Under the pieces are notes generated by a model. It saw only the letters and a list, made by a program, of their open reading frames with translations, was not told the DNA's origin and did not search any database. Position numbers and translations under genes: made by a program. A stretch of DNA of 46,819 nucleotides. It comes from a virus (Duplodnaviria; Caudoviricetes). Where the stretch lies: positions 1-46,819 of IMG/VR virus record IMGVR_UViG_3300049172_000218. The stretch is one strand, 5' to 3'. Numbering within the stretch: the first letter of the stretch is position 1; each line of letters starts with the position of its first letter. Below, in pieces: positions 1 through 43,375 of this stretch.

Positions 1-1005
1 ATGACAACCTCCAGAAGACGGCTGAGAAGTTCACCAGCCATACGGAGGATCGACGTGGCTGAATTGGAAGTACTAGAGCAAGCGTATTTGAACCACCATG
101 TGGTGATGTCCTCATCGCCTAAGACCATCGAACACTACCGGAACACCTTCCTCTGCTTTCACCTGTTTCTCGATGAATCCGGCCACCCGCATGACAGCCA
201 GGCTCTCACAGCCGACATGATCGCCGAGTTTGCGGTTTGGCTCAAGCGGACACCGACCAAGGGATTTCGAGGAAAGACCGAACGGAGCATTGTCACCATT
301 CACGGGCAGCTCAAAGACCTGCGGGCTTTCACCCGCTGGCTGTTCGAGAACGACCGGCTGGAAACATTGCCGAAGATCTACCTGCCGAAGTTGCCACAGA
401 CGCTATTTCCCATCCTGTCCGACGAGGAGTTAATAAAAATCTTCTCGACCCAGCAGATGTCTACCGAAACCGAAATCGGCAAGCGAAACCGAGCCATCAT
501 TTCCTTCATGCTCGATACCGGCGTCAGGCTGGCCGAAGTCTCCTCGTTAAAACTGGAAGACATTCACCTGTCGGATGGCGTGGCGAAGGTATGGGGCAAG
601 GGTTCGAGAGAGCGAATGGTCTTCTTCTCGGCCACCACCGCTGATGCCATCAAACTGTGGCTGTCAGTCAGAGGTCAAGAACCTGGCCAACTGTTCTGGC
701 TCAATCCAGCAGGGGTGCGGATGATGATTGACCGAATTCAAAAGGAGGCGGGGCTCGAAGTCTTCCACGCTCACCAGATCAGGCATACCGCTTTCACCAT
801 CATGCTGCGCAACGACATGGACTCGCATAAGGTCAAACGTATCGCGGGCCACTCGTCCATACTCGTAACTGAGCGGTACCTATCTCTTTCAACCGGGGAT
901 CTCAAGGAAGCTCACCGAATCGCCTCCCCGGTAGAGAAGGTGGTTCGAGATATCAACCCACCAAATCGCACCAGGCGACGGTGGAGCAATAAGAAAGCAT
1001 CTTGA
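1..1005 (+). CDS. int: Tyrosine recombinase/integrase
   Basis: Catalytic motifs: RNRAIISFMLDTGVRLAEV (R), WGKGSRER (K), HQIRHTAF (HxxR), IAGHSSILVTERY (H/Y); N-terminal SAM-like region SPKTIEHY. Confidence 0.95.
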   Translation: MTTSRRRLRSSPAIRRIDVAELEVLEQAYLNHHVVMSSSPKTIEHYRNTFLCFHLFLDESGHPHDSQALTADMIAEFAVWLKRTPTKGFRGKTERSIVTIHGQLKDLRAFTRWLFENDRLETLPKIYLPKLPQTLFPILSDEELIKIFSTQQMSTETEIGKRNRAIISFMLDTGVRLAEVSSLKLEDIHLSDGVAKVWGKGSRERMVFFSATTADAIKLWLSVRGQEPGQLFWLNPAGVRMMIDRIQKEAGLEVFHAHQIRHTAFTIMLRNDMDSHKVKRIAGHSSILVTERYLSLSTGDLKEAHRIASPVEKVVRDINPPNRTRRRWSNKKAS

Positions 1006-2044: not shown

Positions 2045-3040
2045 ATGCCACAAACAATCAAGGAACCGGTGACAGATGAGTGGGGCGGATCATTTTATCG
2101 AGACCGGACCGGCGAGTTTCTGGACGACAAATCCTCACCGTTCCTCGGGGCTGAGCCCATACCTTGGAAAACCATTACTGCCTCTCTTGGGGTGTTCCTG
2201 GGAATTTTCATAATTGGAATTTCTCTCTATTCCTTCGGACAAACTGCTACCTCCGAGTCTGCCGAAAACCAAGATGGCTCGTATAAATTCGGAGTGGTTT
2301 TGGCGACCCTAGTTTTCATGTCGCTCGCAGGACTTCTGATTTGGGGTTCTATCAAACTCTACCTCATGGGTAACGCAGAGAAGCAAATTCGCTTACAAAG
2401 TGACATCCGCTTGAAAGAGCTAAGGGAAGTGGCCCGACTGGGTGTGGCCCAGAACATGACCTTCGCAGATCTCCAGCGCATGGCACATGCGGCCAACCTT
2501 TCGATGGCTCAATACAGTGCCATCGTTCTCGGACACGTGGTTGAAAATGCCACTCAATTCGAAAAATACAAACGGGATCGAAAGGACGACAGGAGGAGGG
2601 AAGAGTTTCAGCGAGAGCACGAACGTGACCAGTGGCGGAGAGAAGAGAATCAGGCCGATCGACAGCACAAGGAGCGGATGCATAAAGCCACCCTTGAAAG
2701 TGAAGAGGCCAAATACTATATCAAGCTGAAGGAGCAGAAGCAGGATTGGGACTACCAGCTCCAGCGGCTCGAACGGCAACAAACGCACGATGAGCGCATC
2801 AAGACTGTCACCGAAATTAGCAACATCCGAGCGGCCATGATTGGTTCGTTAATGGAGTTGCGAGCAAACCCTGCCCTCGCAGGGCAAATCAATCAGATTG
2901 TCACAGCCCTCGATACCGTGCAGCAGGCGCTTGATCGGCCAGAATTCAACACACCGGATGGCGAGAGGAAGCGAGAAGTCTTTGACCAGCTGTTGACGCA
3001 GTTCCTGACCGACGCCTTCACCGGTAAAGCCAAAGCCTGA
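2045..3040 (+). CDS. Two-TM membrane protein with charged coiled-coil C-terminus; first gene of mobilisation operon
   Basis: Hydrophobic segments LGVFLGIFIIGISLY and FGVVLATLVFMSLAGLLIWG; R/E/Q-rich tail; AGGAG RBS; stop 2 nt before ATPase start. Confidence 0.8.
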   Translation: MPQTIKEPVTDEWGGSFYRDRTGEFLDDKSSPFLGAEPIPWKTITASLGVFLGIFIIGISLYSFGQTATSESAENQDGSYKFGVVLATLVFMSLAGLLIWGSIKLYLMGNAEKQIRLQSDIRLKELREVARLGVAQNMTFADLQRMAHAANLSMAQYSAIVLGHVVENATQFEKYKRDRKDDRRREEFQREHERDQWRREENQADRQHKERMHKATLESEEAKYYIKLKEQKQDWDYQLQRLERQQTHDERIKTVTEISNIRAAMIGSLMELRANPALAGQINQIVTALDTVQQALDRPEFNTPDGERKREVFDQLLTQFLTDAFTGKAKA

Positions 3041-3042
3041 AA

Positions 3043-4842
3043 ATGGAAACGCAGCTCATGAGTCTCGGGCATAAGGCTTTTGATCCCGCACGCCCGACCA
3101 TTGGCCGCTATCCACTCCGGATGGACCTGAAATCGCTCAGGTCCATTCACATTCTTGGTCAGCCGGGTTATGGCAAATCTACTCTGCTAGGCCGCCTGGC
3201 AGAGACTTTTGCCGATTTGGGTCACGGTGTCTTAGTGATCGACATTCGCGGGGACTTGGCCACCAACCTCGTCTGTCGAACCAAGCACGCGGATAGACTC
3301 ATTCTGGTCGATCCAGTTGAAGCTTCCACCACCGGCCACTACTGGTCGCTCAACCCCATGGATTTTGATCGCAAGAACCCGCAGCTGTTTGATCGCTACA
3401 CCGACCGGCTGCCGGATCTCTTCGCCCGGATTGGTATTCACGATCCAACTCTCATGCAGACCATCGAGAAACTGCTAACCGAAGGCGTCAGGTTGGCTCT
3501 GGCTACTCCAGACACATCCCTACTCGATGTCTACCTGGCCCTGCACGATGACCGGCATCGAGAACGACTGCTTCGCTCTCGACACGTTCCGCCGCTCACC
3601 AGAGACTACTTTCAGGAAGTGTTCACCAAGTCTGATCATCCACTGCGGAAGAACAACGCTGGTGGCATGACGCCTCGTGATCGCCGGATTGCCATCGACT
3701 CGACCGATTCCAGGCTTCGCCAAGTGCTGGGCGGAAACCTGCTCAACCGGATGCTGATCCAACCCCATACAACCCTCAACATCGCCCAGTGGCTAGACGA
3801 GGGCAAGCTCGTTGTCGTCAATCTCGATCAATCGAGGATGGGGGAACGTACTGCCCGCAAGATGGGCAACCTAATTCTCGGCGCCCTCTCCAATGACATC
3901 ATTCAGCGGCCGACTGGAGAGGTATCCCTTCCCTGGCGAATCATCGTCGATGAAGCGGCCGAACTAGCCAATCGCCCCTTTGCCGAGATGATCACCCAAA
4001 TGCGAACCCACTCGGTCTATCCCATCCTGGCCCATCAGAATCTCTCGCAACTCAAAGACGAAACCCTCGCCGACGCCGTATCGCAAGCCTCCTGCAAAAT
4101 CCGGTTCCGGCTTTCCGAAGTTGACGCCAAGACCATTGCCGATCGGTACTCTCCCGAATTCGCCGCTCATCTGATGAGTCTCCCTCCCTACCGAGCGCGG
4201 GTGATGTGGGACGCCTCCGACAATCGCCTGGTAGACAGTCGCCTTGGGGTCGATGTTGATCTACAAGATTGGTGGGGAGTTAGCGATACGGCCCAGCTTA
4301 CAGCGGCTCTTGCGGCGCAACGCTCCCTGGCCCAACACGAGTCGCATCAACGCCAGTTACTCCATCTTGAGCGGTTTAAGACTGCGTCAAAACATGGTGT
4401 AATGGAGGGAGCTTATGACGATGACCCAACCGACGACAAAACCTACCAACCCCCACCCCGGCCGGATGAACCGGGATCTGAAGAACTCCCGGAAACGCCC
4501 GATGGAGGGGATCCATCGTGGCTGGGACGCGTTGGAAGCCCTGTACCGGTACCGGGCGATGCAACCCAAGCACATGGCCCAGCTGTTGTTTCTGAAACTG
4601 CCGGATCCGACCGACCCGAGCCAGAGTCTGCCGAAAGCCCTCCGCTCAGCCCAGCAAGCGGCCAACCGCAACTGCCTCTACTGGCTGAAGAACCTGGGCT
4701 ACATCAAAGCGATCTCAATCGCGATTCAAAAAGGGGACTCGGCGACGGCGATGGAGATGTGCGCCCTGACGCCGAAGGGATTCGAGGTGCTCCAGGAGCA
4801 CCGACTGAACCACGGCCTGGAGGCCCACTCCAACCTAGTTAA
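3043..4842 (+). CDS. VirD4/TraG/TrwB-like coupling ATPase (HerA/FtsK superfamily)
   Basis: Walker A GQPGYGKST, VLVIDIRGDL, Walker B WRIIVDEAAE, ILAHQNLSQL, FRLSEVDA; acidic Pro-rich tail. Confidence 0.88.
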   Translation: METQLMSLGHKAFDPARPTIGRYPLRMDLKSLRSIHILGQPGYGKSTLLGRLAETFADLGHGVLVIDIRGDLATNLVCRTKHADRLILVDPVEASTTGHYWSLNPMDFDRKNPQLFDRYTDRLPDLFARIGIHDPTLMQTIEKLLTEGVRLALATPDTSLLDVYLALHDDRHRERLLRSRHVPPLTRDYFQEVFTKSDHPLRKNNAGGMTPRDRRIAIDSTDSRLRQVLGGNLLNRMLIQPHTTLNIAQWLDEGKLVVVNLDQSRMGERTARKMGNLILGALSNDIIQRPTGEVSLPWRIIVDEAAELANRPFAEMITQMRTHSVYPILAHQNLSQLKDETLADAVSQASCKIRFRLSEVDAKTIADRYSPEFAAHLMSLPPYRARVMWDASDNRLVDSRLGVDVDLQDWWGVSDTAQLTAALAAQRSLAQHESHQRQLLHLERFKTASKHGVMEGAYDDDPTDDKTYQPPPRPDEPGSEELPETPDGGDPSWLGRVGSPVPVPGDATQAHGPAVVSETAGSDRPEPESAESPPLSPASGQPQLPLLAEEPGLHQSDLNRDSKRGLGDGDGDVRPDAEGIRGAPGAPTEPRPGGPLQPS

Positions 4843-5404
4843 TCCAGTCCCGGTCATCTGCGACCAGTCGTTTGATCACTGGTTGCTGGGAATGGAGTCA
4901 GCCGTTTCCGCTGAAGCGGCTATCCGCTCAGTCGGTGGGAAGGTGACGACCTATTGGGACGAATATGAGATTCGCCAACGGTCCAAGAGACGCCGAGACG
5001 GCATCGATTGGGGCGGGCTCGAACCAGACGGCCTAATCATCGCCGAAATCAATGGCATCAAACACGCCATGTTGCCGGAAATCGATCGAGGCTTCCAACC
5101 GGTCGCCTCAAACGCTCCCAACTCCATTCGCACCAAGGGACACAAATACAAGAACTTTTTCATCCACTACCGGCAGTACGACCCCCTGCTGATGGATCTT
5201 AAGCAGCCGACGGTTCACTTCATTACCAAGTCAAAGCAACGTCTGGAAACGATACGGGAAGAGATCGAGAGCCAGGGCGGCAGGCAATCCTACTGGTACT
5301 CCACCTTCGAATGGATCCAGCCACCGTATTCCTTTCTGGGCCAGGTCTGGGAAGTGTCAGGACGGGAGGGGTACCACTCGCCACTCTCCATCTTTAAGCC
5401 GTAG
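4415..5404 (+). CDS. Replication-relaxation (Replic_Relax-type) relaxase
   Basis: N-terminal wHTH (LEALYRYRAMQPKHMAQLLF...ALTPKG), DHWLLG, PD-(D/E)xK-like core EPDGLI...EIDRG...KGHKY; GGAGG RBS; adjacent to coupling ATPase. Confidence 0.8.
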   Translation: MTMTQPTTKPTNPHPGRMNRDLKNSRKRPMEGIHRGWDALEALYRYRAMQPKHMAQLLFLKLPDPTDPSQSLPKALRSAQQAANRNCLYWLKNLGYIKAISIAIQKGDSATAMEMCALTPKGFEVLQEHRLNHGLEAHSNLVNPVPVICDQSFDHWLLGMESAVSAEAAIRSVGGKVTTYWDEYEIRQRSKRRRDGIDWGGLEPDGLIIAEINGIKHAMLPEIDRGFQPVASNAPNSIRTKGHKYKNFFIHYRQYDPLLMDLKQPTVHFITKSKQRLETIREEIESQGGRQSYWYSTFEWIQPPYSFLGQVWEVSGREGYHSPLSIFKP

Positions 5405-5463
5405 CAGCCGATGTAGCCCCGGCGCAACAAATGGAGAAGATCGAGCCCAATGGACCGATTTCA

Positions 5464-5493
5464 GCCGTAGGGCCAGCCGTATCCCCTGCTGTA
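5464..5493 (+). repeat. Three GCYGTA hexamers at exact 12-bp period (right copy)
   Basis: GCCGTA 5464, GCCGTA 5476, GCTGTA 5488; also GCCGTA 5398 and GATGTA 5410. Confidence 0.75.
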
Positions 5494-5527
5494 GGCGCCC
5501 GAGTCCTACAACTCATCTCATCGTGAG

Positions 5528-6004
5528 CTTTCTTCTTGGCCTTCGGCCATCTGACAGCTTCACTCTAGCAGATCAGTAAAATGTCCAGCTCCACTATGAT
5601 GCTATAGACCTTTCGACCGATCTGCCTGCTACTCGTCACTATAGATTGATCCTCAAGATTTCCCGATCACAATCGGCAGGGCCAGCCCTTGCCGATACCT
5701 CCTCTCCAGACACTCTCCTCCTCTCCGGATTGCTCCCTCTCTCCTTCCACTCCACTCATTTTTCATTTCATTGTCATGCCGCTACGCTCCAGTCGGTCAG
5801 TCGCACTCCTGCGCTCCGTTGACCGCCTTGCGCTCCAGCATCACCAAGCCCTGTCCGCCGATTGAACGGTCAATGGTGAGTCTCTACCTATAGCAACCAG
5901 CACCACGCCGATTTGCCGAAATGCCCATAGCATCTTCGTTCCCGCTTGAATTTGACAGACCTGCTACAGCAAATCTATCAGATGGCCGAAGGCCAAGAAG
6001 AAAG
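5528..6004. repeat. Long imperfect inverted repeat with perfect 27-bp outer arms; candidate single-strand origin or ssDNA promoter
   Basis: 5528-5554 CTTTCTTCTTGGCCTTCGGCCATCTGA is the exact reverse complement of 5978-6004; inner helices are in the same register. Confidence 0.85.
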
Positions 6005-6072
6005 GCAGGTCCTATGTAACAACACAGCCTCACTTTATTCATCAAGCGCACAAGCACACTAGTAGTCATGTT

Positions 6073-6537
6073 ATGGAGAACCACATGTTTATTATTCAAC
6101 TTACAGAAGAACAGATAGCGGCTATCCAGGTCAGAGACCGAAAATCGCTCAAGCGGCAGCCCAGACCCCAGATAAGGGAATCGAAAGACGCCTTTGAGCT
6201 GTTGAGGCATATGGGGCAGCTCAGCAAAGAGCATTGCATGGTGCTGACATTAGACTCTCGGAGCCAAGTTATAGGCAAGCATGAAATCAGCGTCGGTACC
6301 GTTGACGCTTCACTGCTTCATCCTCGCGAAGTGTTCAGGGTAGCAATCAAAGATGCGGCCAGATCACTAATTCTGGCTCACAATCACCCCAGCGGACAAT
6401 TAGATCCATCAGAAGATGATCTGCTCATAACCAAGCGGATAAAAACGGCTGGCCAGATAGTAGGCATTCCAGTTGTTGACCACCTGATCATCGGCCAGGG
6501 CGACTTCTACAGCTGGCGTGATAACGAGCGCATGTAG
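6073..6537 (+). CDS. radC: RadC-like JAB/MPN domain protein
   Basis: SVGTVDASLLHPREVF, AHNHPSG, S-x-DD, VVDHLIIG. Confidence 0.93.
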   Translation: MENHMFIIQLTEEQIAAIQVRDRKSLKRQPRPQIRESKDAFELLRHMGQLSKEHCMVLTLDSRSQVIGKHEISVGTVDASLLHPREVFRVAIKDAARSLILAHNHPSGQLDPSEDDLLITKRIKTAGQIVGIPVVDHLIIGQGDFYSWRDNERM

Positions 6538-6585: not shown

Positions 6586-6837
6586 ATGAGATCAACACAA
6601 CGGATCGTACTCGCCCATCAAGAGGCTATGAGGCGCAAAGAATCAACCAAGTTCAGCGATGAATTCATCCGCATACAGGAGCGAAACGCAGAACGTAATG
6701 CCCTCCATTGGCTGCATCGTGCGGACATCGATGTCGACAGAGCAAAAGTCCTCGCTCTATTTGAACCTATCCTTCGCCGTTATTGGACACGGTGCGGATA
6801 CTCCCAAAGCTGGATCAATCGTCAATTTGCCCCTTGA
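6586..6837 (+). CDS. Hypothetical protein (start 6586 or 6562)
   Basis: AGGAG RBS before ATG 6586; follows radC. Confidence 0.55.
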   Translation: MRSTQRIVLAHQEAMRRKESTKFSDEFIRIQERNAERNALHWLHRADIDVDRAKVLALFEPILRRYWTRCGYSQSWINRQFAP

Positions 6838-6863
6838 CATTCTCAGCACTCACTAGATATTAT
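6834..6863 (+). promoter_or_regulatory. Sigma70-type promoter of the early small-gene operon
   Basis: TTGACA (6834-6839)-18 nt-TATTAT (6858-6863), followed by GTAGATGTTCAATCAC. Confidence 0.75.
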
Positions 6864-7048
6864 GTAGATGTTCAATCACCCAACAGCCTCGATACTTCCC
6901 CACCTATTTTGACTTTGAACACCATCCACTTGGACCGGTTCCACCTCCGGCCCAAGTGCGGTGGTTCTTGGCGTATGAGAGCACAACTATAGAGAGCAAA
7001 AGGCCTATCGACCGGCCTGTAATCGGTCGAATATGGAGAACCACAGTA

Positions 7049-9559: not shown

Positions 9560-9625
9560 CCCCTTGCCGGCCTGAAGGAGCGCCCAACCTTGGACGCTGC
9601 AAAGGCTCAGGCAAGGAAAGACACA

Positions 9626-10453
9626 ATGGGAAAGGTAGAGCGGGCAGAGTTACTCACGTCGCAGATCGATGAAGCCTTGGAGGATCTGGAATACCAACTC
9701 TCACAAGGCCACACGCAAGAGTTTCTGGACATCCTCGACTACTACGCCAAGCACTTCCACGCCTACTCCATCACCAACCTGATGCTCATCCGCGCCCAGA
9801 AGCCGACAGCCACCAGATGTGCCGGGTACAAGCAATGGGAGAAGCTCGGATGCCAGGTCAGGCAGGGTGAGAAGGCGATTTACGTTCGCGCCCCGTGGCT
9901 TCGTAAGGAAGTGGACCAGGAGACCGGTGAAAAGACCGAGAAGCTCATAGGCTACCTCGCGGTTCCAGTGTTCGACGCCTCACAGGTCGATGGAACCGAC
10001 AAGCTCCCCTCCCCCAGACATCCGCTAGAGGGCGACTTCGTACCGCTGTACATGATGGCCCAGCTGGCCACCATCGGGGCGGGAATTGCCTTTGAGGAAT
10101 GTCAGCTGCCCTTCGGGGTGCATGGACTCTCATCCGGTAGGCGGATAGCCATATCCAGCACCCTGTCCACGGCCGAGAAGTTCGTCACCCTGTTGCACGA
10201 GGCTTGTCACGAGGTTCTCCATAAGGGAGAAGACCGGGTGAAGCTCTCACAACGGGAGTTAGAGGCCGAGTCTGCCAGCTACTGCCTCGCCAGGTACTTC
10301 GGGACTGACAATCCCTTCAGCAGGGACTACATCCTGAACTACCGAGGAACGGTCGAAGGGCTGCAAGCCAGCTTCTCCCGCATCCACAGAGCGGTGAAGG
10401 AAATCGTCTCCTGGTTCGAGCTAGAGGAAGAACCGGCCATCGCCGCCGACTAA
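9626..10453 (+). CDS. ardC: ArdC-like ssDNA-binding/antirestriction protein with zincin (HExxH) domain
   Basis: FHAYSITNLMLIRAQKP...AGYKQWEKLGCQVRQGEKAI, VFDASQV, HEACHE, ELEAESASY. Confidence 0.88.
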   Translation: MGKVERAELLTSQIDEALEDLEYQLSQGHTQEFLDILDYYAKHFHAYSITNLMLIRAQKPTATRCAGYKQWEKLGCQVRQGEKAIYVRAPWLRKEVDQETGEKTEKLIGYLAVPVFDASQVDGTDKLPSPRHPLEGDFVPLYMMAQLATIGAGIAFEECQLPFGVHGLSSGRRIAISSTLSTAEKFVTLLHEACHEVLHKGEDRVKLSQRELEAESASYCLARYFGTDNPFSRDYILNYRGTVEGLQASFSRIHRAVKEIVSWFELEEEPAIAAD

Positions 10454-12169: not shown

Positions 12170-12281
12170 GAGCCAGTTAGCTCAAGGTAGAGTTCTGAAC
12201 GGTAGACGACAGAGTGTAAATCCGTGAATAGCGGTCTCTCGCTGTATTCAGAGGACGCAGGTTCAAATCCTGCCCTGGCTC
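12170..12281 (+). tRNA. tRNA-like gene with about 40 nt of extra sequence in the anticodon loop; identity undetermined
   Basis: Acceptor (G)AGCCAG/CTGGCT(C); TA-GCTC-AAGGTA-GAGT D arm; CTGAA/TTCAG anticodon stem enclosing 47 nt; AGGAC variable loop; GCAGG-TTCAAAT-CCTGC T arm; no encoded CCA. Confidence 0.7.
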
Positions 12282-12781: not shown

Positions 12782-13162
12782 GTGAACGACACCGAGCGAG
12801 TTCTTGAACTACTCAGGCGTGCTGTGGCTATCCTGGAGGATGAGATTGAGGAGCGGCCGGCCAAGCCTCTGACGATCCAACCCTCAGATGATGAGGTATT
12901 GCTAGAAGGCGTGGTTGGAAAATGCACCCTTCGGCAAGTTGGAGAAGGTGCTATACCCGTCTACAACGGTTCGATGAAGGTCAGAACACCGGAAGGCCAG
13001 GAACGATGGGTCGAGCTCACCGCCTGGCGTAAGGTGGCGCTGTGGGCAGAGAAGAACCTCGCAGAAGGGGAAGTGGTACAAGCGGTTGGACGGTGGGAAA
13101 CCAACCATTACAACGGAGAAGACAGACCATACTTCAGTGTCCGGCTATTCAGTTCGGCCTGA
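12782..13162 (+). CDS. ssb: Single-stranded DNA-binding (OB-fold) protein lacking an acidic tail
   Basis: VLLEGVVGK...ERWVELTAWRKVALWAEKNLAEGEVVQAVGRWETNHYNGEDR; AAGGAG RBS. Confidence 0.78.
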   Translation: MNDTERVLELLRRAVAILEDEIEERPAKPLTIQPSDDEVLLEGVVGKCTLRQVGEGAIPVYNGSMKVRTPEGQERWVELTAWRKVALWAEKNLAEGEVVQAVGRWETNHYNGEDRPYFSVRLFSSA

Positions 13163-14466: not shown

Positions 14467-15294
14467 TTGCAACCTATGGCCTCATCCATCGAAACGTCGA
14501 TTCAACCAATTGCCCAGATAGGCCATGGTGCCCTCTACAACGCCGACTGTCTTGACGTACTACCCACTATCGAGAGCGAGTCGGTGGACTTGGTCTTTGC
14601 AGATCCTCCTTTCAACCTTGATAAAAATTACGGGGCTCACTTTCGGGACAAGATCTCCGAAGCAGACTATCTGGACTGGTGCTACCAGTGGCTAGATGAA
14701 TGTATCCGCATCTTGAGCCCGGGAGGCGCACTATTCGTCTACAACCTTCCCAAGTGGAATGTGCTACTGGGCGCGCACATACAGAAACAGTTGGAGTTCC
14801 GGCACTGGATCGCAGTGGATATCAAGCTCTCCCTGCCGATCCCTGGCCGACTCTATCCCTCCCACTATTCGCTCCTCTACTACACCAAGGGCAAGCCACG
14901 AGCATTTACCCGGCCGCGGGTCCCCATTCCCGTCTGCCGTCATTGTGGTGGAGAGATCAAGGATTATGGCGGGCATCGCAACAAGCTCAACCCAGAGGGT
15001 CTTAATCTCACCGACGTTTGGACTGACATCCCTCCAGTCCGCCATCGATCCACCAAGAATCGCGGAGCCAATGAGCTTTCAATTAAGTTGCTCAACCGGG
15101 TCGTAGAGATTGCCTCAAACCCGGGCGACACGATCCTCGACCCATTCGGCGGCGGTGGTTCGACGTTCGAAGCCGCAGAGCGTGGACATCGATCCTGGAT
15201 TGGTATTGAATTGGGCGACTGTCAACCAATCATTGATCGTCTGACACGAGTGGCCTCTGAACCAGTGCCCACCCGTCTGTTCCCTTTGGAATAA
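14467..15294 (+). CDS. Beta-class amino (N4-C/N6-A) DNA methyltransferase, M.BamHI-like
   Basis: VDLVFADPPFN precedes ILDPFGGGGST (beta order); LYPSHYSLLYYTKG. Confidence 0.93.
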   Translation: MQPMASSIETSIQPIAQIGHGALYNADCLDVLPTIESESVDLVFADPPFNLDKNYGAHFRDKISEADYLDWCYQWLDECIRILSPGGALFVYNLPKWNVLLGAHIQKQLEFRHWIAVDIKLSLPIPGRLYPSHYSLLYYTKGKPRAFTRPRVPIPVCRHCGGEIKDYGGHRNKLNPEGLNLTDVWTDIPPVRHRSTKNRGANELSIKLLNRVVEIASNPGDTILDPFGGGGSTFEAAERGHRSWIGIELGDCQPIIDRLTRVASEPVPTRLFPLE

Positions 15295-15838
15295 AAGGGA
15301 CAGACAGATCGACAGAATCATGTTCCACTTCAATCACATGAAAGAGGTGATTGGGTAAAGGGAGATAGCTGTACAATTCAAAGAACCTCTCCACCTCTTG
15401 AAAGTTGCCAATCCGATCCGTGAGATACCGATACAACGCCCTGGACGGCAGCACCAATACGCCAGCCACGATGGTGCCGTGGATTAAGCCGAGCGACAGT
15501 CGATTTAGGGAACGATAGCTGGATGTGACGTTTCCAGTCTCCCACTCGACTCCGAATGTGCCTATGGCTGTCTCCAATGAAGCGTCCACCCTCCCCAGTT
15601 TGCCCGGGAATTCCACCTCCATTTTCCAGCCGTATCGATTGAGCGTTTCAACGAAGGCGTGCTTGATAGGCACCACTCCATTGCCCGTTTTGACTGGGTT
15701 TATACGAAAGTCGGAGGCGTCGGGGGGCCATACTATCGCCCCGATAGCTTCATAAATTTGATCTTGAGCTCGCTGCCATTCTGAAGATTCCGATATCGAT
15801 GAGGCATCCTGGATCTTCTCAGTACGCAGTCGCTTCAT
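15230..15838 (-). CDS. BamHI-like type II restriction endonuclease
   Basis: NGVVPIK, GRVDA, VEWETGNVTSSYRSLNRL, YLTDRIGNFQE resemble R.BamHI motifs; convergent and overlapping with the MTase. Confidence 0.88.
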   Translation of the reverse strand: MKRLRTEKIQDASSISESSEWQRAQDQIYEAIGAIVWPPDASDFRINPVKTGNGVVPIKHAFVETLNRYGWKMEVEFPGKLGRVDASLETAIGTFGVEWETGNVTSSYRSLNRLSLGLIHGTIVAGVLVLPSRALYRYLTDRIGNFQEVERFFELYSYLPLPNHLFHVIEVEHDSVDLSVPFIPKGTDGWALVQRPLVSDDQ

Positions 15839-16035
15839 TGGGCCATTCCAGCCTTCTATTCAGAGTCGGCCATTCCGGCCGACTATTCGAAGGATTCAGC
15901 TCGCTCGCCCGCTCTCAAAGTCAATTATCTACCACCGTACCAGGATGTGGATCGCCGCAGACGAGCCTGTATACCGCTTCGAGGAACTCATCAGTCAGAT
16001 TCGATCGACTATGTATGCAAAGTACACCCACCTCG

Positions 16036-17751
16036 TTACAGTCGGCTCATCTGCGCAGGAACGTTGTAGCAATGTTGAAACACTAGATCGGCGAATTCCG
16101 GAGACTTCGCAGCTCGATCGGCGTCGAATTGGTAGTCGTGCTGGATCGTTACCAAGTCGTTCATCACTGTGGTGAGCGAATCAGCTAGTCGCTGGTCACT
16201 GATTGAGGCAACGTCGAAGTCGACTAGCATGACCGGCCGTATCTTAGCCCGTCCGATTGACATGCTTGCAACATGCATGGCAACGTGAAAACGCACGTTG
16301 TTTCTTTGACCGGCAGCAGCAGCCGCACCAGGCCCCTTCAAAAATCCCTCTATACGGCGCATCAGCTTTGCCGCCACAACATAGCTGTCAACCGGATTAT
16401 TCTGATCAAATATCCGCCGATACAGTAAGTCGTCCTTTAGCAGCGATGAAGGCCGAGCGCGAGCATCATCAGGACGCTGCAACACTATTGACATGTAGGC
16501 CTGTGCCAAATACTTCACCTCAACAATAAGATCTCTCGGCCGTCCTTCATTTTTATAATAGTTCCTTCTTCTGTCGTAATACAATCCGTTGTTTAGAAAA
16601 TGATCCTCAATGTCTCGCTGCATCGTATCCGTCGCACGCAGGGATGCATCCGATATTTTAGCTTGAAAATTCGTCGCCTTGATTATCCTGTCTCGACTGT
16701 CTCCGCTCACCGGTTTTAGCGCTCTAACCAAGACCTTTCGATCATCTACTACCTGACTATTCCGCACGAAATAGTTAAAAATCTCCGTTGATGTCTGCAT
16801 CCCGTTCACGATCTGAGGACGCTCTAGCGCTACTCGTCTCCCTTGTTGTCCAACGTCCGTACACAGGATTGTAATTCCATTGTTGAGCCACCAGAAGTCC
16901 TCATCTTGTTGTCCATGTTCTAGCGTATTCTTTATGTCATCGTTTACTTCATTTCTGCCTTGATAGTCTCGGACATTAGATTCAAATAAGCTCTTCCTCA
17001 TATTGCCATTGTCGTCCCTTATCATTTCATATAGATCTCCTATTTTGACCAGAAATATTAGCCCCCCATCATCTGTCGACAGCGGTCCATCAGCGGCGAC
17101 AAGTTGTAAATTATTCGTTGGGTTCTCGCGTGCGATGGCCAGTAATCTCACTGCACCTAAAAAATTGAACGTTGCGGTGCTCCCCGGAAAGCTATTGGCC
17201 ACCGTGCTCCGAAGCTGTTCTGCAAGGGTCCTAATCTCAGTACTGGGTTCATCCCCTCGACCGGCTGCATAGATGTCAATCGATAAGTCTGGAATGGTAT
17301 GTATTACCTGCTGATGGACCGTTCGAAATCTTTCCATAATCGCAATAACATCAGCATTATACAGGTGGGCGAATTCATGTAATTCTACATTGAGGTTGAA
17401 CAAATTAGCTAGCGAAGCTCTCATCCTGTGGATAGGATCTTCCCCAAATCCTGTCGTATACTTTGATTGAATAATAACTAATCTAAGGTTTACTCTTTGA
17501 GTTCGATCACTGTAATCCACACCCTCCTCGGCAAGGTTGCTGTCCACAAACAGATATATTGAGTCGATTCCACCATCATGAGTTCCATCGACAATGCCAT
17601 CTTTTATTTCATCATAGGACATTTCATAGCTTTTTAGAATTTGCTCTGCACTGAACTCTTCAAAGAAATCGCTTATTTCAGTTGCCCCACCACGTCGCGC
17701 GTGTTCGGCTTCTATCAAATTCTGGAAAATGACTCTGTGGTTTTGTTCCAT
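16036..17751 (-). CDS. AIPR family (abortive infection phage resistance, ParB-like) protein
   Basis: DGGIDSIY, FESNVRDYQG, FWWLNNGITI, QIVNGMQTS, ATNFQ; lower GC than flanks; start refined to MEQNH. Confidence 0.9.
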   Translation of the reverse strand: MEQNHRVIFQNLIEAEHARRGGATEISDFFEEFSAEQILKSYEMSYDEIKDGIVDGTHDGGIDSIYLFVDSNLAEEGVDYSDRTQRVNLRLVIIQSKYTTGFGEDPIHRMRASLANLFNLNVELHEFAHLYNADVIAIMERFRTVHQQVIHTIPDLSIDIYAAGRGDEPSTEIRTLAEQLRSTVANSFPGSTATFNFLGAVRLLAIARENPTNNLQLVAADGPLSTDDGGLIFLVKIGDLYEMIRDDNGNMRKSLFESNVRDYQGRNEVNDDIKNTLEHGQQDEDFWWLNNGITILCTDVGQQGRRVALERPQIVNGMQTSTEIFNYFVRNSQVVDDRKVLVRALKPVSGDSRDRIIKATNFQAKISDASLRATDTMQRDIEDHFLNNGLYYDRRRNYYKNEGRPRDLIVEVKYLAQAYMSIVLQRPDDARARPSSLLKDDLLYRRIFDQNNPVDSYVVAAKLMRRIEGFLKGPGAAAAAGQRNNVRFHVAMHVASMSIGRAKIRPVMLVDFDVASISDQRLADSLTTVMNDLVTIQHDYQFDADRAAKSPEFADLVFQHCYNVPAQMSRL

Positions 17752-17961
17752 GCCTTTATTCCCCAATGGTGGTTCTATATTGCGGAGAGACGGATTGCAG
17801 CGACTCAACCGCGTTGCGTAATTTGCTTGGACCCTTTCCGGGCAATATAGCAAATCACGGTCTAACGGCCAACCGTCGTGCTTGCGTCAAGATTTGGAAA
17901 GTTCTGGGTTGACGTTTGAGTTTAATATTTGATACTTTGTATCAAACACCTACGCACCCCT

Positions 17962-42360: not shown

Positions 42361-42993
42361 TTAGAAGGGGATATCGCTTGGACTCACATCCTTGGTGTGC
42401 TTGGCTGGATCGACCGGCTCGTCATCTACCTGATCTGCTGCTTCTGGGAAAGATGCAGTGACGGCGTCTTTGGTTTCTGGGGTGACTGCGGGGGCTGTGG
42501 CAGGCTGAGATGAGGAGGCAACGGCCAGGTTTCCAGCGGCTTGGAGGAAGTAGAGTTCAGACAGAGCAAACACTTTCTGTGGCTTGAGGAACTCTTTGGC
42601 TTCTGCTAGACCCTTTTGCTTGTCTTCGGCAGCATCATAGGTCATACGAGCGACGGCGATCATGATGTCTGTGGCGTGGCCGAGCGAGTTCTGGCGAATG
42701 ATTGAGGCTGTTTCTTCGGGACTGCGTTGGTAGCCACCACGCCCGCCTCCACCCTGTCGGTCTTCCTTCAGTTCGATACCAAACTTCTCACTCTGCGTGA
42801 TCGTTCCATTGATCTCGTCGCCTACAACTGGTGCTGGCTTTTTTGCCGATCGAGACATCTTGGCGAGGGTTTGGGTACCGGCCTCATCGGTGACGGCCAC
42901 CTGGTACTCGACCATTGCGACTTCTTCTCCGTCGCGTCCGTTGAATGTGTAGTCGCGAGCTTTGCTTGCGAGGGTTACTTTATACTTTGCCAT
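42361..42993 (-). CDS. SSB-like/ssDNA-annealing protein with acidic DIPF tail
   Basis: OB-like N-terminus, Gly-rich linker, SIIRQNSL helix, C-terminal SDIPF; AAGGAG RBS. Confidence 0.65.
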   Translation of the reverse strand: MAKYKVTLASKARDYTFNGRDGEEVAMVEYQVAVTDEAGTQTLAKMSRSAKKPAPVVGDEINGTITQSEKFGIELKEDRQGGGGRGGYQRSPEETASIIRQNSLGHATDIMIAVARMTYDAAEDKQKGLAEAKEFLKPQKVFALSELYFLQAAGNLAVASSSQPATAPAVTPETKDAVTASFPEAADQVDDEPVDPAKHTKDVSPSDIPF

Positions 42994-43215: not shown

Positions 43216-43258
43216 AGCTGACACCTCCTTTAGGGGTTATTAGTGATTGAACATATAC

Positions 43259-43287
43259 ATAATATACAGCATATATTTAATTGTCAA
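43259..43287 (-). promoter_or_regulatory. Near-consensus leftward sigma70 promoter
   Basis: Minus strand TTGACA-17 nt-TATTAT followed by GTATATGTTCAATCACT. Confidence 0.85.
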
Positions 43288-43375
43288 TAGACTAGTTTAG
43301 GAATTGGGGTATTGCCATATATACTGATTCTATGCTTTGATTAATCCATAACCTACTTGCCGTCAGGTGTATAAT

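Follow-up and report, generated by a model that had tools for sequence, protein, structure and literature searches.

A strand-biased fold-back element beside a predicted MOBC relaxase gene in a tailed prophage: a candidate single-strand origin

A non-coding inverted repeat of 477 nt (5528..6004) lies directly 3' of a predicted relaxase gene in the window, the 46,819-nt stretch of DNA analysed here, which is a provirus record with a CheckV completeness of 99% and holds a single copy of the fold-back. We conclude that this element is a real, maintained and strand-biased fold-back of a MOBC module in a prophage. The reading that we prefer, at a probability of roughly 0.4, is that it is a single-strand origin (sso) acting on a displaced minus strand; this reading is favoured because it fits the strand bias, the position of the element and a structure that is better conserved than its sequence. 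The parts of the element are as follows.

5528..6004, minus strand (strand of the stable fold): whole fold-back, from inverted-repeat search, DNA folding and shuffles
5528..5554: left outer arm, perfect complement of 5978-6004, containing GGCCTTCGGCC (5538-5548)
5555..5698: left inner arm, with CTATAG boxes (5602, 5639) and CAATCGGC (5670-5677)
5672..5696: local hairpin ATCGGCA...TGCCGAT, a competitor of the CAATCGGC/GCCGATTG helix
5699..5837: apex, about 140 nt, a CTCC-rich tract, branched and partly unpaired
5781-5787, minus strand: single GCGTAGC mini-hairpin motif in the apex, from a motif scan
5783-5790, 5810-5817 and 5829-5836, minus strand: three GGAGCGYA direct repeats in the apex, from sequence
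5794-5799 / 5820-5825: CGGTCA/TGACCG stem in the apex, from sequence
5838..5977: right inner arm, with GCCGATTG (5857-5864), CTATAG (5888), CCATAGCATC and TTGACA (5952)
5978..6004: right outer arm, containing GGCCGAAGGCC (5984-5994)

The fold-back is the longest inverted repeat of the window. It scored 118 in a scan of the whole window in which nothing else reached 36, and 12 shuffles of the region gave a maximum of 30. A preliminary description, made from the letters alone, had reported a perfect 27-bp inverted repeat (5528-5554 with 5978-6004), which we found as the outermost base of the fold-back. Its inner helices TAGCAG/CTGCTA, GATGCTAT/ATAGCATC and CTATAG/CTATAG were verified in register 11532, the helix CAATCGGC/GCCGATTG lies where it was placed (register 11534), and TATGAT at 5595, TTGACA at 5952 and the other listed motifs are all at their reported positions. 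In the single fixed register 11532, 96 of the 137 positions of 5528-5664 are Watson-Crick pairs. The description of the whole as a rod of about 480 nt stood in part: the fold-back is real, but under a stricter alignment the arms pair, imperfectly, over only about 170 bp (5528-5698 with 5838-6004), and the 140-nt apex is branched and partly unpaired. Its shape is that of a rod topped by a complex structure and falls short of a 240-bp helix. On the minus strand, GGCCTTCGGCC (5538-5548) reads as a C-GAA-G mini-hairpin. The CCGAAGG mini-hairpin, which is present in RSF1010 ssiA as described (PMC13037366), occurs once on each strand of the fold-back; because the outer arm is a perfect repeat, it is uninformative on strand.

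Both strands, folded as single-stranded DNA as the preliminary description had proposed, beat their shuffles, and the strong fold is that of the minus strand. Its minimum free energy was -108.4 kcal/mol (z -12.2), against -74.4 kcal/mol (z -5.1) for the plus strand, with 0 of 100 shuffles as low in either case. Compared with 97 tiles of 480 nt, the minus strand was the window's best (-108.0; best tile -92.4), whereas the plus strand was ordinary (-73.5; tile mean -68.8). The difference between strands was about -35 at the element and at most -15 in the other 480-nt tiles. This bias was overlooked in the first reading. It is visible in the mismatches of the rod: among the 41 in 5555-5664, read on the plus strand, 31 involve C (13 C-T, 12 A-C and 6 C-C), 7 involve G and 3 neither. 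C in 31 of 38 informative mismatches departs from 0.5 (p 1e-4) and from the window's own skews (p 2e-4 to 2e-3). The minus strand folds more stably because these 31 mismatches read G-T, G-A or G-G there; its DNA fold contains 14 G-T pairs, and G-A or G-G make up 22 of its 29 symmetric loop mismatches. The C skew could also come from strand-biased mutation. In integron attC sites a G and purine skew of this kind distinguishes the active strand, G-T pairs and purine-rich unpaired parts selecting the folding strand as they may here; attC is a short integrase substrate, unlike the fold-back, and the likeness is an analogy only (PMC5027507).

RNA parameters gave the same asymmetry (z -13.3 for the minus strand and -5.6 for the plus strand), so folding energy does not separate DNA from RNA. 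The element might then act as RNA, either as an antisense minus-strand transcript forming a long G-U-rich rod or as a deliberately weakened plus-strand leader. We regard this as improbable, although the strength of the minus-strand RNA fold, the 12 A-C against 2 G-T mismatches on the plus strand (p 0.013) and the 13 minus-strand GGAG motifs within 450 nt, the window maximum, would all suit it. Rfam covariance models of known families, which we take to include the radC motif, gave no match at the gathering threshold or at E values up to 1; a consensus scan found neither a minus-strand promoter nor a terminator at the element's ends; and the position of the element is tied to the relaxase. In addition, G-A and G-G mismatches together exceed G-T. 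By the ranking of mismatch stabilities, G-A as frequent as G-T fits DNA better than RNA, and the high share of G-A and G-G leans towards DNA as the active form.

We found a single metagenome locus related to this region, L014, with a relaxase 57% identical to that of the window. It carries a homologous left arm and apex at the same position and stops before the right arm. L014 keeps 67 of 96 paired positions against 17 of 41 unpaired ones (Fisher p 0.002; one homologue, one alignment). Variants of the rod are present in two runs, X2 and X3, at about 95% and 80-85% identity; a third run, X1, may be the source. The CTATAG boxes of the left inner arm and their 25-nt spacing are retained in L014 and in the run variants, and an equivalent of the 5672..5696 hairpin, with its pairs changed, is found in L014 and in the 80-85% variants. 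In X3, T5550C and A5982G form a compensatory pair, seen on two different contigs. Nine arm variants were classified among the listed rows of a table with 20 more; besides this pair, three fall at unpaired sites, a minus-strand pair is kept or improved by two and weakened by another two. X3 also has loose ends, at the same spacing as in the window, with CTATGG on the left and CCATAG on the right, which would be a second compensation if both lay on one molecule. A profile built from the two left arms (window and L014) found nothing significant in the other loci.

These comparisons bear on whether the element is a MITE or another fold-back transposon relic with no role, which we consider very improbable. 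The perfect 27-bp termini, the lack of coding capacity and the presence of rod variants in X2 and X3 are what such a relic might show. However, the element is single-copy in the provirus and has no target-site duplication (its flanks are GTGAG and GCAGG), and 192 genomes of the related order gave only four weak matches of 24-44 nt; these copy counts cover the provirus and those genomes, not the host chromosome. By blastn at E 0.1 the fold-back matched nothing in 72,556 plasmids or 50,697 phages. It also occupies the same position in L014, where 8 of the 27 outer-arm bases differ; since the two arms of the window are a perfect match, this suggests that the arms have been kept in step. By these tests a MITE, which the preliminary description had asked to exclude, is unlikely.

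Other searches returned chance matches or none. A 17-nt arm motif gave ten matches in viral contigs, all of them lone copies in unrelated contexts, and a spaced motif gave one, inside a tape-measure-like gene; both results were set down to chance. Protein scans of the viral contigs found no relative, and tblastn with the relaxase found no match in the plasmids and phages; near relatives may be absent from these sets. Two further structures were set aside: a hairpin telomere, since the element has no spacer-free palindrome, and a CTXphi-like folded attachment site, since the rod is far from the integrase end. The pMEA hairpin origin was rejected as a parallel because it sits inside an unrelated rep gene (PMC2440964).

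The genes around the element are as follows.

1..1005, plus strand: tyrosine integrase (Pfam)
2045..3040, plus strand: membrane and coiled-coil protein in the same operon as the ATPase and relaxase, with no family (Pfam, PHROGs)
3043..4842, plus strand: TrwB/VirD4-like ATPase of the HerA/FtsK superfamily (DUF87 and TrwB_AAD_bind at or above cut-off)
4415..5404, plus strand: MOBC / Replic_Relax relaxase homologue, 329 aa (predicted winged helix plus PD-(D/E)XK; homologues)
6073..6537, plus strand: radC (JAB domain), for which the minus strand is the template
9590..10453, plus strand: ArdC-like single-strand DNA-binding anti-restriction protein (family searches)

The product of 4415..5404 is a predicted MOBC relaxase homologue, assigned through homologues and a motif and not by a direct Pfam match, the ORF itself having none. 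A protein 51% identical to it (P0004) matches PF13814, as do related genome copies, and the PD, ExD and K residues are invariant across 20 aligned homologues. The model of the relaxase (pLDDT 89) resembles FokI-type nucleases and PadR-type winged helices, both as weak matches (TM about 0.26). PF13814 has been described as the MobC family (PMC5357655) and placed in the PD-(D/E)XK group (PMC3424549). The ATPase and relaxase ORFs share 428 nt, and the ATPase tail is proline-rich; a like overlap occurs in L016, L054 and L064. The likely start of radC is at 6085, with GGAG at 6075 before it, and the rod ends 80 nt upstream of that start.

Elsewhere the window encodes methylase, restriction, terminase, portal, capsid, tape-measure, tail and amidase proteins. 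In scans of 58 ORFs with Pfam, of 45 and a further 11 with PHROGs and of 24 with NCBIfam we recognised no replication initiator, helicase, primase or mating-channel gene; many ORFs are without a family, and the last runs off the end. In this complete-looking tailed prophage the relaxase and ATPase are the sole replication candidates seen. There is a weak SSB match at 12782-13162, and 42361-42993 (minus strand) encodes a 210-aa protein without a family, with an OB-fold hint from structural neighbours that lies below any bar; its DIPF end resembles an SSB tail. The ESM Atlas gave no family for this product or for that of 2045-3040. A methylase opposite a BamHI-family endonuclease, followed by an AIPR gene, makes up a defence cassette at 14467-17853. 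An Rfam tRNA match at 12171-12281 spans 111 nt, beyond standard tRNA length, and possibly bears an insertion. Two strong sigma-70-type promoters, at 6834-6879 (plus) and 43243-43288 (minus), serve different gene sets, the first driving the rightward early genes and the second the leftward genes 43224-41253; they are identical at 22 of 23 positions from the -10 onward, and this common stretch is probably a common operator or promoter class.

The integrase, coupling-ATPase and relaxase module has its nearest genome relatives in Chloroflexia elements. An alignment of the ATPase matched two genome loci titled Thermomicrobiales and Chloroflexia, and from these sequence matches the host of the prophage is likely a member of Chloroflexia. 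Of 401 genomes of the class, 40 had a match to a relaxase profile; a narrower profile matched 7 of 192 genomes of the order, and at a stricter cut-off 12 of 401 genomes of the phylum were matched. The full order of integrase, ATPase and overlapping relaxase, with sequence beyond, was found in five other loci (L016, L017, L054, L057 and L060).

In two of these five modules the relaxase gene is followed by a fold-back, unrelated in sequence, that stops shortly before the next gene. That of L017 is 486 nt long (score 59) and has no minus-strand preference (z -3.3 plus, -2.4 minus), whereas that of L016, from the unpublished genome G001, is 253 nt long (score 44) and folds better on the minus strand (z -9.7) than on the plus strand (-4.5). 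L054, L057 and L060, which include the genome locus with the best profile match, have no post-relaxase fold-back above shuffles. A permissive fold-back score was abandoned because it was high everywhere, and a stricter, shuffle-controlled score was used. With it, 8 of 31 downstream regions reached at least 37, the window included and L069 and L070 being near-identical; L014 and L064 (contig ends), L036, L041, L043, L044, L047, L052 and L074-L104 stood outside the scored set. The background was 11 comparable fold-backs in about 197 kb of 11 loci, or about 0.05 per 900 nt. Minus-strand preference was absent at L054:16613-16831, L040 and L070.

Several of these loci have features of their own. 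In L016 (14474-15442), L017 (13552-14601) and L060 a second Replic_Relax gene lies further on, with no fold-back behind it, and L016 also carries a phage O-type rep and parA on the opposite strand. A 219-nt fold-back follows tRNAs at L054:16613-16831, and one of 217 nt lies upstream of an ATPase-relaxase pair at L061:4333-4549 (z -11.1 antisense against -7.7). In contig 2 of genome G078 (L054-L056, about 609800-663000) the module is joined to ardC, four tRNAs, terminase, portal, protease and capsid genes; an intein-bearing portal fusion and then lanthipeptide and CBASS clusters are present, and no tail gene was seen among the scanned ORFs. Distant Replic_Relax genes in L040 (1170-1970), L069, L070 (8063-8860), L071 and L072 are followed by a different structured region, with inverted repeats of 21-46 bp and repeated GCGNAGC on the antisense strand, which looks like a second family of such elements. 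Across 32 regions after relaxases, GCGNAGC mini-hairpins numbered 41 on the minus strand against about 15 expected and 21 on the plus strand against 14 (post hoc). We dropped this enrichment as support because it is driven by five distant, partly near-identical loci; the window has one such motif.

The preliminary proposal of a structure acting on single-stranded nucleic acid beside a relaxase is supported. As expected of an sso, the element is a non-coding, stable, strand-specific structure beside a nicking initiator, the initiator being recognised by homology. The fold, its strand preference and the relaxase family are predictions, and nicking, the choice of the displaced strand, DNA (not RNA) as the active form and priming are inferences beyond them. 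In this reading the excised element would be nicked by the relaxase; the minus strand, once displaced, would adopt the rod structure, at which a host enzyme would prime the complementary strand. If RNA polymerase were to prime, the simplest run would be from apex to base along the 5838-6004 arm and on into radC, and, as in Frpo, primer synthesis and radC expression could both use the rod. On the minus strand, a TATAGT hexamer (5643-5638) is correctly oriented for an apex-to-base run and has no good -35.

The ssoA class of origins has RSB at the stem base and CS-6 (TAGCG T/A) in the terminal loop. The likeness to ssoA drawn in the preliminary description failed on these motifs: RSB (TTTATGCCG, GCCGTGAAA) is absent on either strand of 5401-6100, and CS-6 has no exact match, the closest being TAGCGG (5/6) in the apex on the minus strand. 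Primosome motifs are also absent, save one AAGCGG, a hexamer with 36 occurrences in the window. P2-like phages replicate via a nicking Rep. The view that a single-stranded DNA stage is unusual for a tailed phage was too strong, since Bacillus temperate phages have been described that carry an operon of FtsK plus replication-relaxation genes (PMC11526630).

The closest parallel in position is sso1 of ICEBs1, which is described as lying immediately 3' of the relaxase gene, orientation-specific and redundant in the intact element (PMC4595007). Like it and the sso elements of rolling-circle plasmids, the fold-back is a non-coding structured region, here just 3' of an integrating element's relaxase gene, and, as for them (PMC4595007), strand specificity is expected of it. 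In the same account, sso1 is about 200 bp with three stem-loops and plasmid-sso-like sequence beside a MOBT relaxase (PMC4595007), whereas the fold-back is one long imperfect rod of 477 nt with a perfect 27-bp base, has no sequence match in the searched collections, and stands beside a MOBC homologue in a tailed prophage. Several findings count against the sso reading: three of the five other modules lack a post-relaxase fold-back and L017 lacks the minus-strand preference, two of the nine arm variants classified among the listed rows weaken a minus-strand pair, and the element has neither a canonical promoter pair nor an RSB or CS-6 motif. The redundancy of sso1 in intact ICEBs1 would fit the patchy presence of rods across modules.

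The preliminary description had also likened the element to Frpo, and its main job could be that of a single-strand promoter through which radC and the genes after it are expressed early in a new host. The part of this likeness that stood is that radC and ardC, downstream, are templated by the folding strand; the part that did not is the promoter, no good -35/-10 pair occurring at promoter spacing. TATGAT and TTGACA, taken earlier as promoter elements, lie one on each arm and have opposite orientations in the fold, and TATGAT is changed at three of six positions in the X2 and X3 variants and missing in L014. A consensus promoter scan (at least 9/12, usual -10 constraints) found no site inside the rod. 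Looser scans gave TTGACA-18-TATCAG on the plus strand, where the partner strand in the minus fold reads TTTACT, and TCGGGA-17-TATAGT (8/12) in the minus-strand 3' arm. Similarity to known Frpo sequences was likewise not borne out by the blastn searches of plasmids and phages.

We hold the single-strand promoter role to be improbable, slightly more so than action as RNA. The end of the rod 80 nt before the likely radC start and the ardC or methylase genes that also follow the module in L054, L057 and L060 speak for it. However, a strong double-strand promoter of their own (6834-6863) serves the genes behind radC, and with a nick nearby the genes would run, relative to the relaxase, in the opposite order to those of a leading region. 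The geometry would be awkward, since minus-strand transfer starting from a nick here would bring radC and ardC into a recipient last. Frpo/ssi elements of F and ColIb-P9 are described as imperfect fold-backs on the template strand upstream of establishment-type genes, as here, and the screen for them covered regions of 50-350 bp; unlike them, our element has no consensus -35/-10 in the fold, is longer and lies 3' of the relaxase (PMC11541004). EGeRS1 of the pLS20 family shares a length of 420-750 bp, richness in inverted repeats, lack of a constitutive promoter, a place directly upstream of ardC-type operons and DNA fold energies of similar size (PMC8708921). It is described as branched, in several copies per plasmid and with the transferred strand as the non-template, whereas the element is single-copy, rod-like and stable on the template strand (PMC8708921).

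A reading missed in the preliminary description is that the element is the relaxase's own origin (an oriT or double-strand origin). The winged-helix domain would bind the apex direct repeats and the nick would fall in an arm; after one round of displacement the long arms would pair the minus-strand ends, and host ligase would close them with no covalent relaxase. With a nick in one arm, both ends would pair on the other arm, giving a ligase substrate. The origin and sso roles could share the element. By homologues and motif the cognate relaxase is of the PF13814 / PD-(D/E)XK winged-helix type expected at a MOBC oriT, its fold matches being weak. The oriT2 of pAD1 reportedly contains a large inverted repeat of about 140 bp that holds nic. 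The repeat of our element is about three times that length, and the window has no mating-channel genes. A 2025 review describes TraX of pAD1 as having an N-terminal winged helix and binding five direct repeats 70-120 bp from nic; in that account no covalent intermediate was detected and religation without a covalent relaxase is still open (PMC12857230). CloDF13 is described as having a free 5' end (PMC6736028). MOBC origins of this kind share with the element the relaxase family and an adjacent coupling ATPase (PMC12857230, PMC6736028, PMC5357655), as well as direct repeats at a distance from inverted repeats (PMC12857230, PMC6736028).

In the window the apex direct repeats lie about 70-170 nt from the conserved CTATAG helices. 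Long inverted repeats also stand behind the distant PF13814-like genes of L040, L069, L070, L071 and L072, and CTCC exceeds GGAG on the relaxase strand in five of seven modules (13/1, 15/1, 6/0, 6/1 and 9/1, with about 2 expected; post hoc), two of them without a rod. The remaining modules are even (L016, 5/7) or reversed (L054, 1/7). Against an origin, an essential site would be expected in every module and the rod is missing in three of the five others, no nick site was identified, and a VirB4-type ATPase (PF19044) was found in none of the five module-bearing genomes, which may be incomplete. Minus-strand transfer from here would also send the relaxase in first, contrary to the usual order as described (PMC11541004). 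On balance we consider the origin reading, the closest rival of the sso reading, somewhat unlikely. A more specific proposal is that the prophage replicates or is mobilised from a MOBC nick within the rod, whose 170-bp arms would serve as a splint, pairing the ends of the displaced strand for ligation and then priming its second strand; we hold this to be unlikely.

The literature that we searched in full text, with most subscription journals outside its scope, gave no paper on a prophage or Chloroflexota fold-back located 3' of a Replic_Relax gene. IMEs of class 8 (MobC + VirD4 + integrase) are described as having an integrase, a coupling protein and a MOBC relaxase with no channel, like the module (PMC5357655), and phage-ICE tandems combine phage and conjugation-type genes in one unit, like the prophage, but as two separate elements (PMC13651849). 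The prophage differs from both in that one integrase fronts the module and a full siphovirus-type gene set, with no ICE channel.

Very few plasmids have known cis sites for MOBC / Replic_Relax modules. The element offers a compact substrate that combines direct repeats and conserved boxes with a predicted strand, its cognate enzyme being encoded next to it. If it is merely an sso 3' of a relaxase gene, it would be a new sequence family in a known arrangement. If the splint reading were true, it would explain strand closure by MOBC relaxases without a covalent bond and would define a relaxase-driven replicon in Chloroflexota phages. The element also marks a module that occurs in Chloroflexia on its own as well as in combination with phage head genes.
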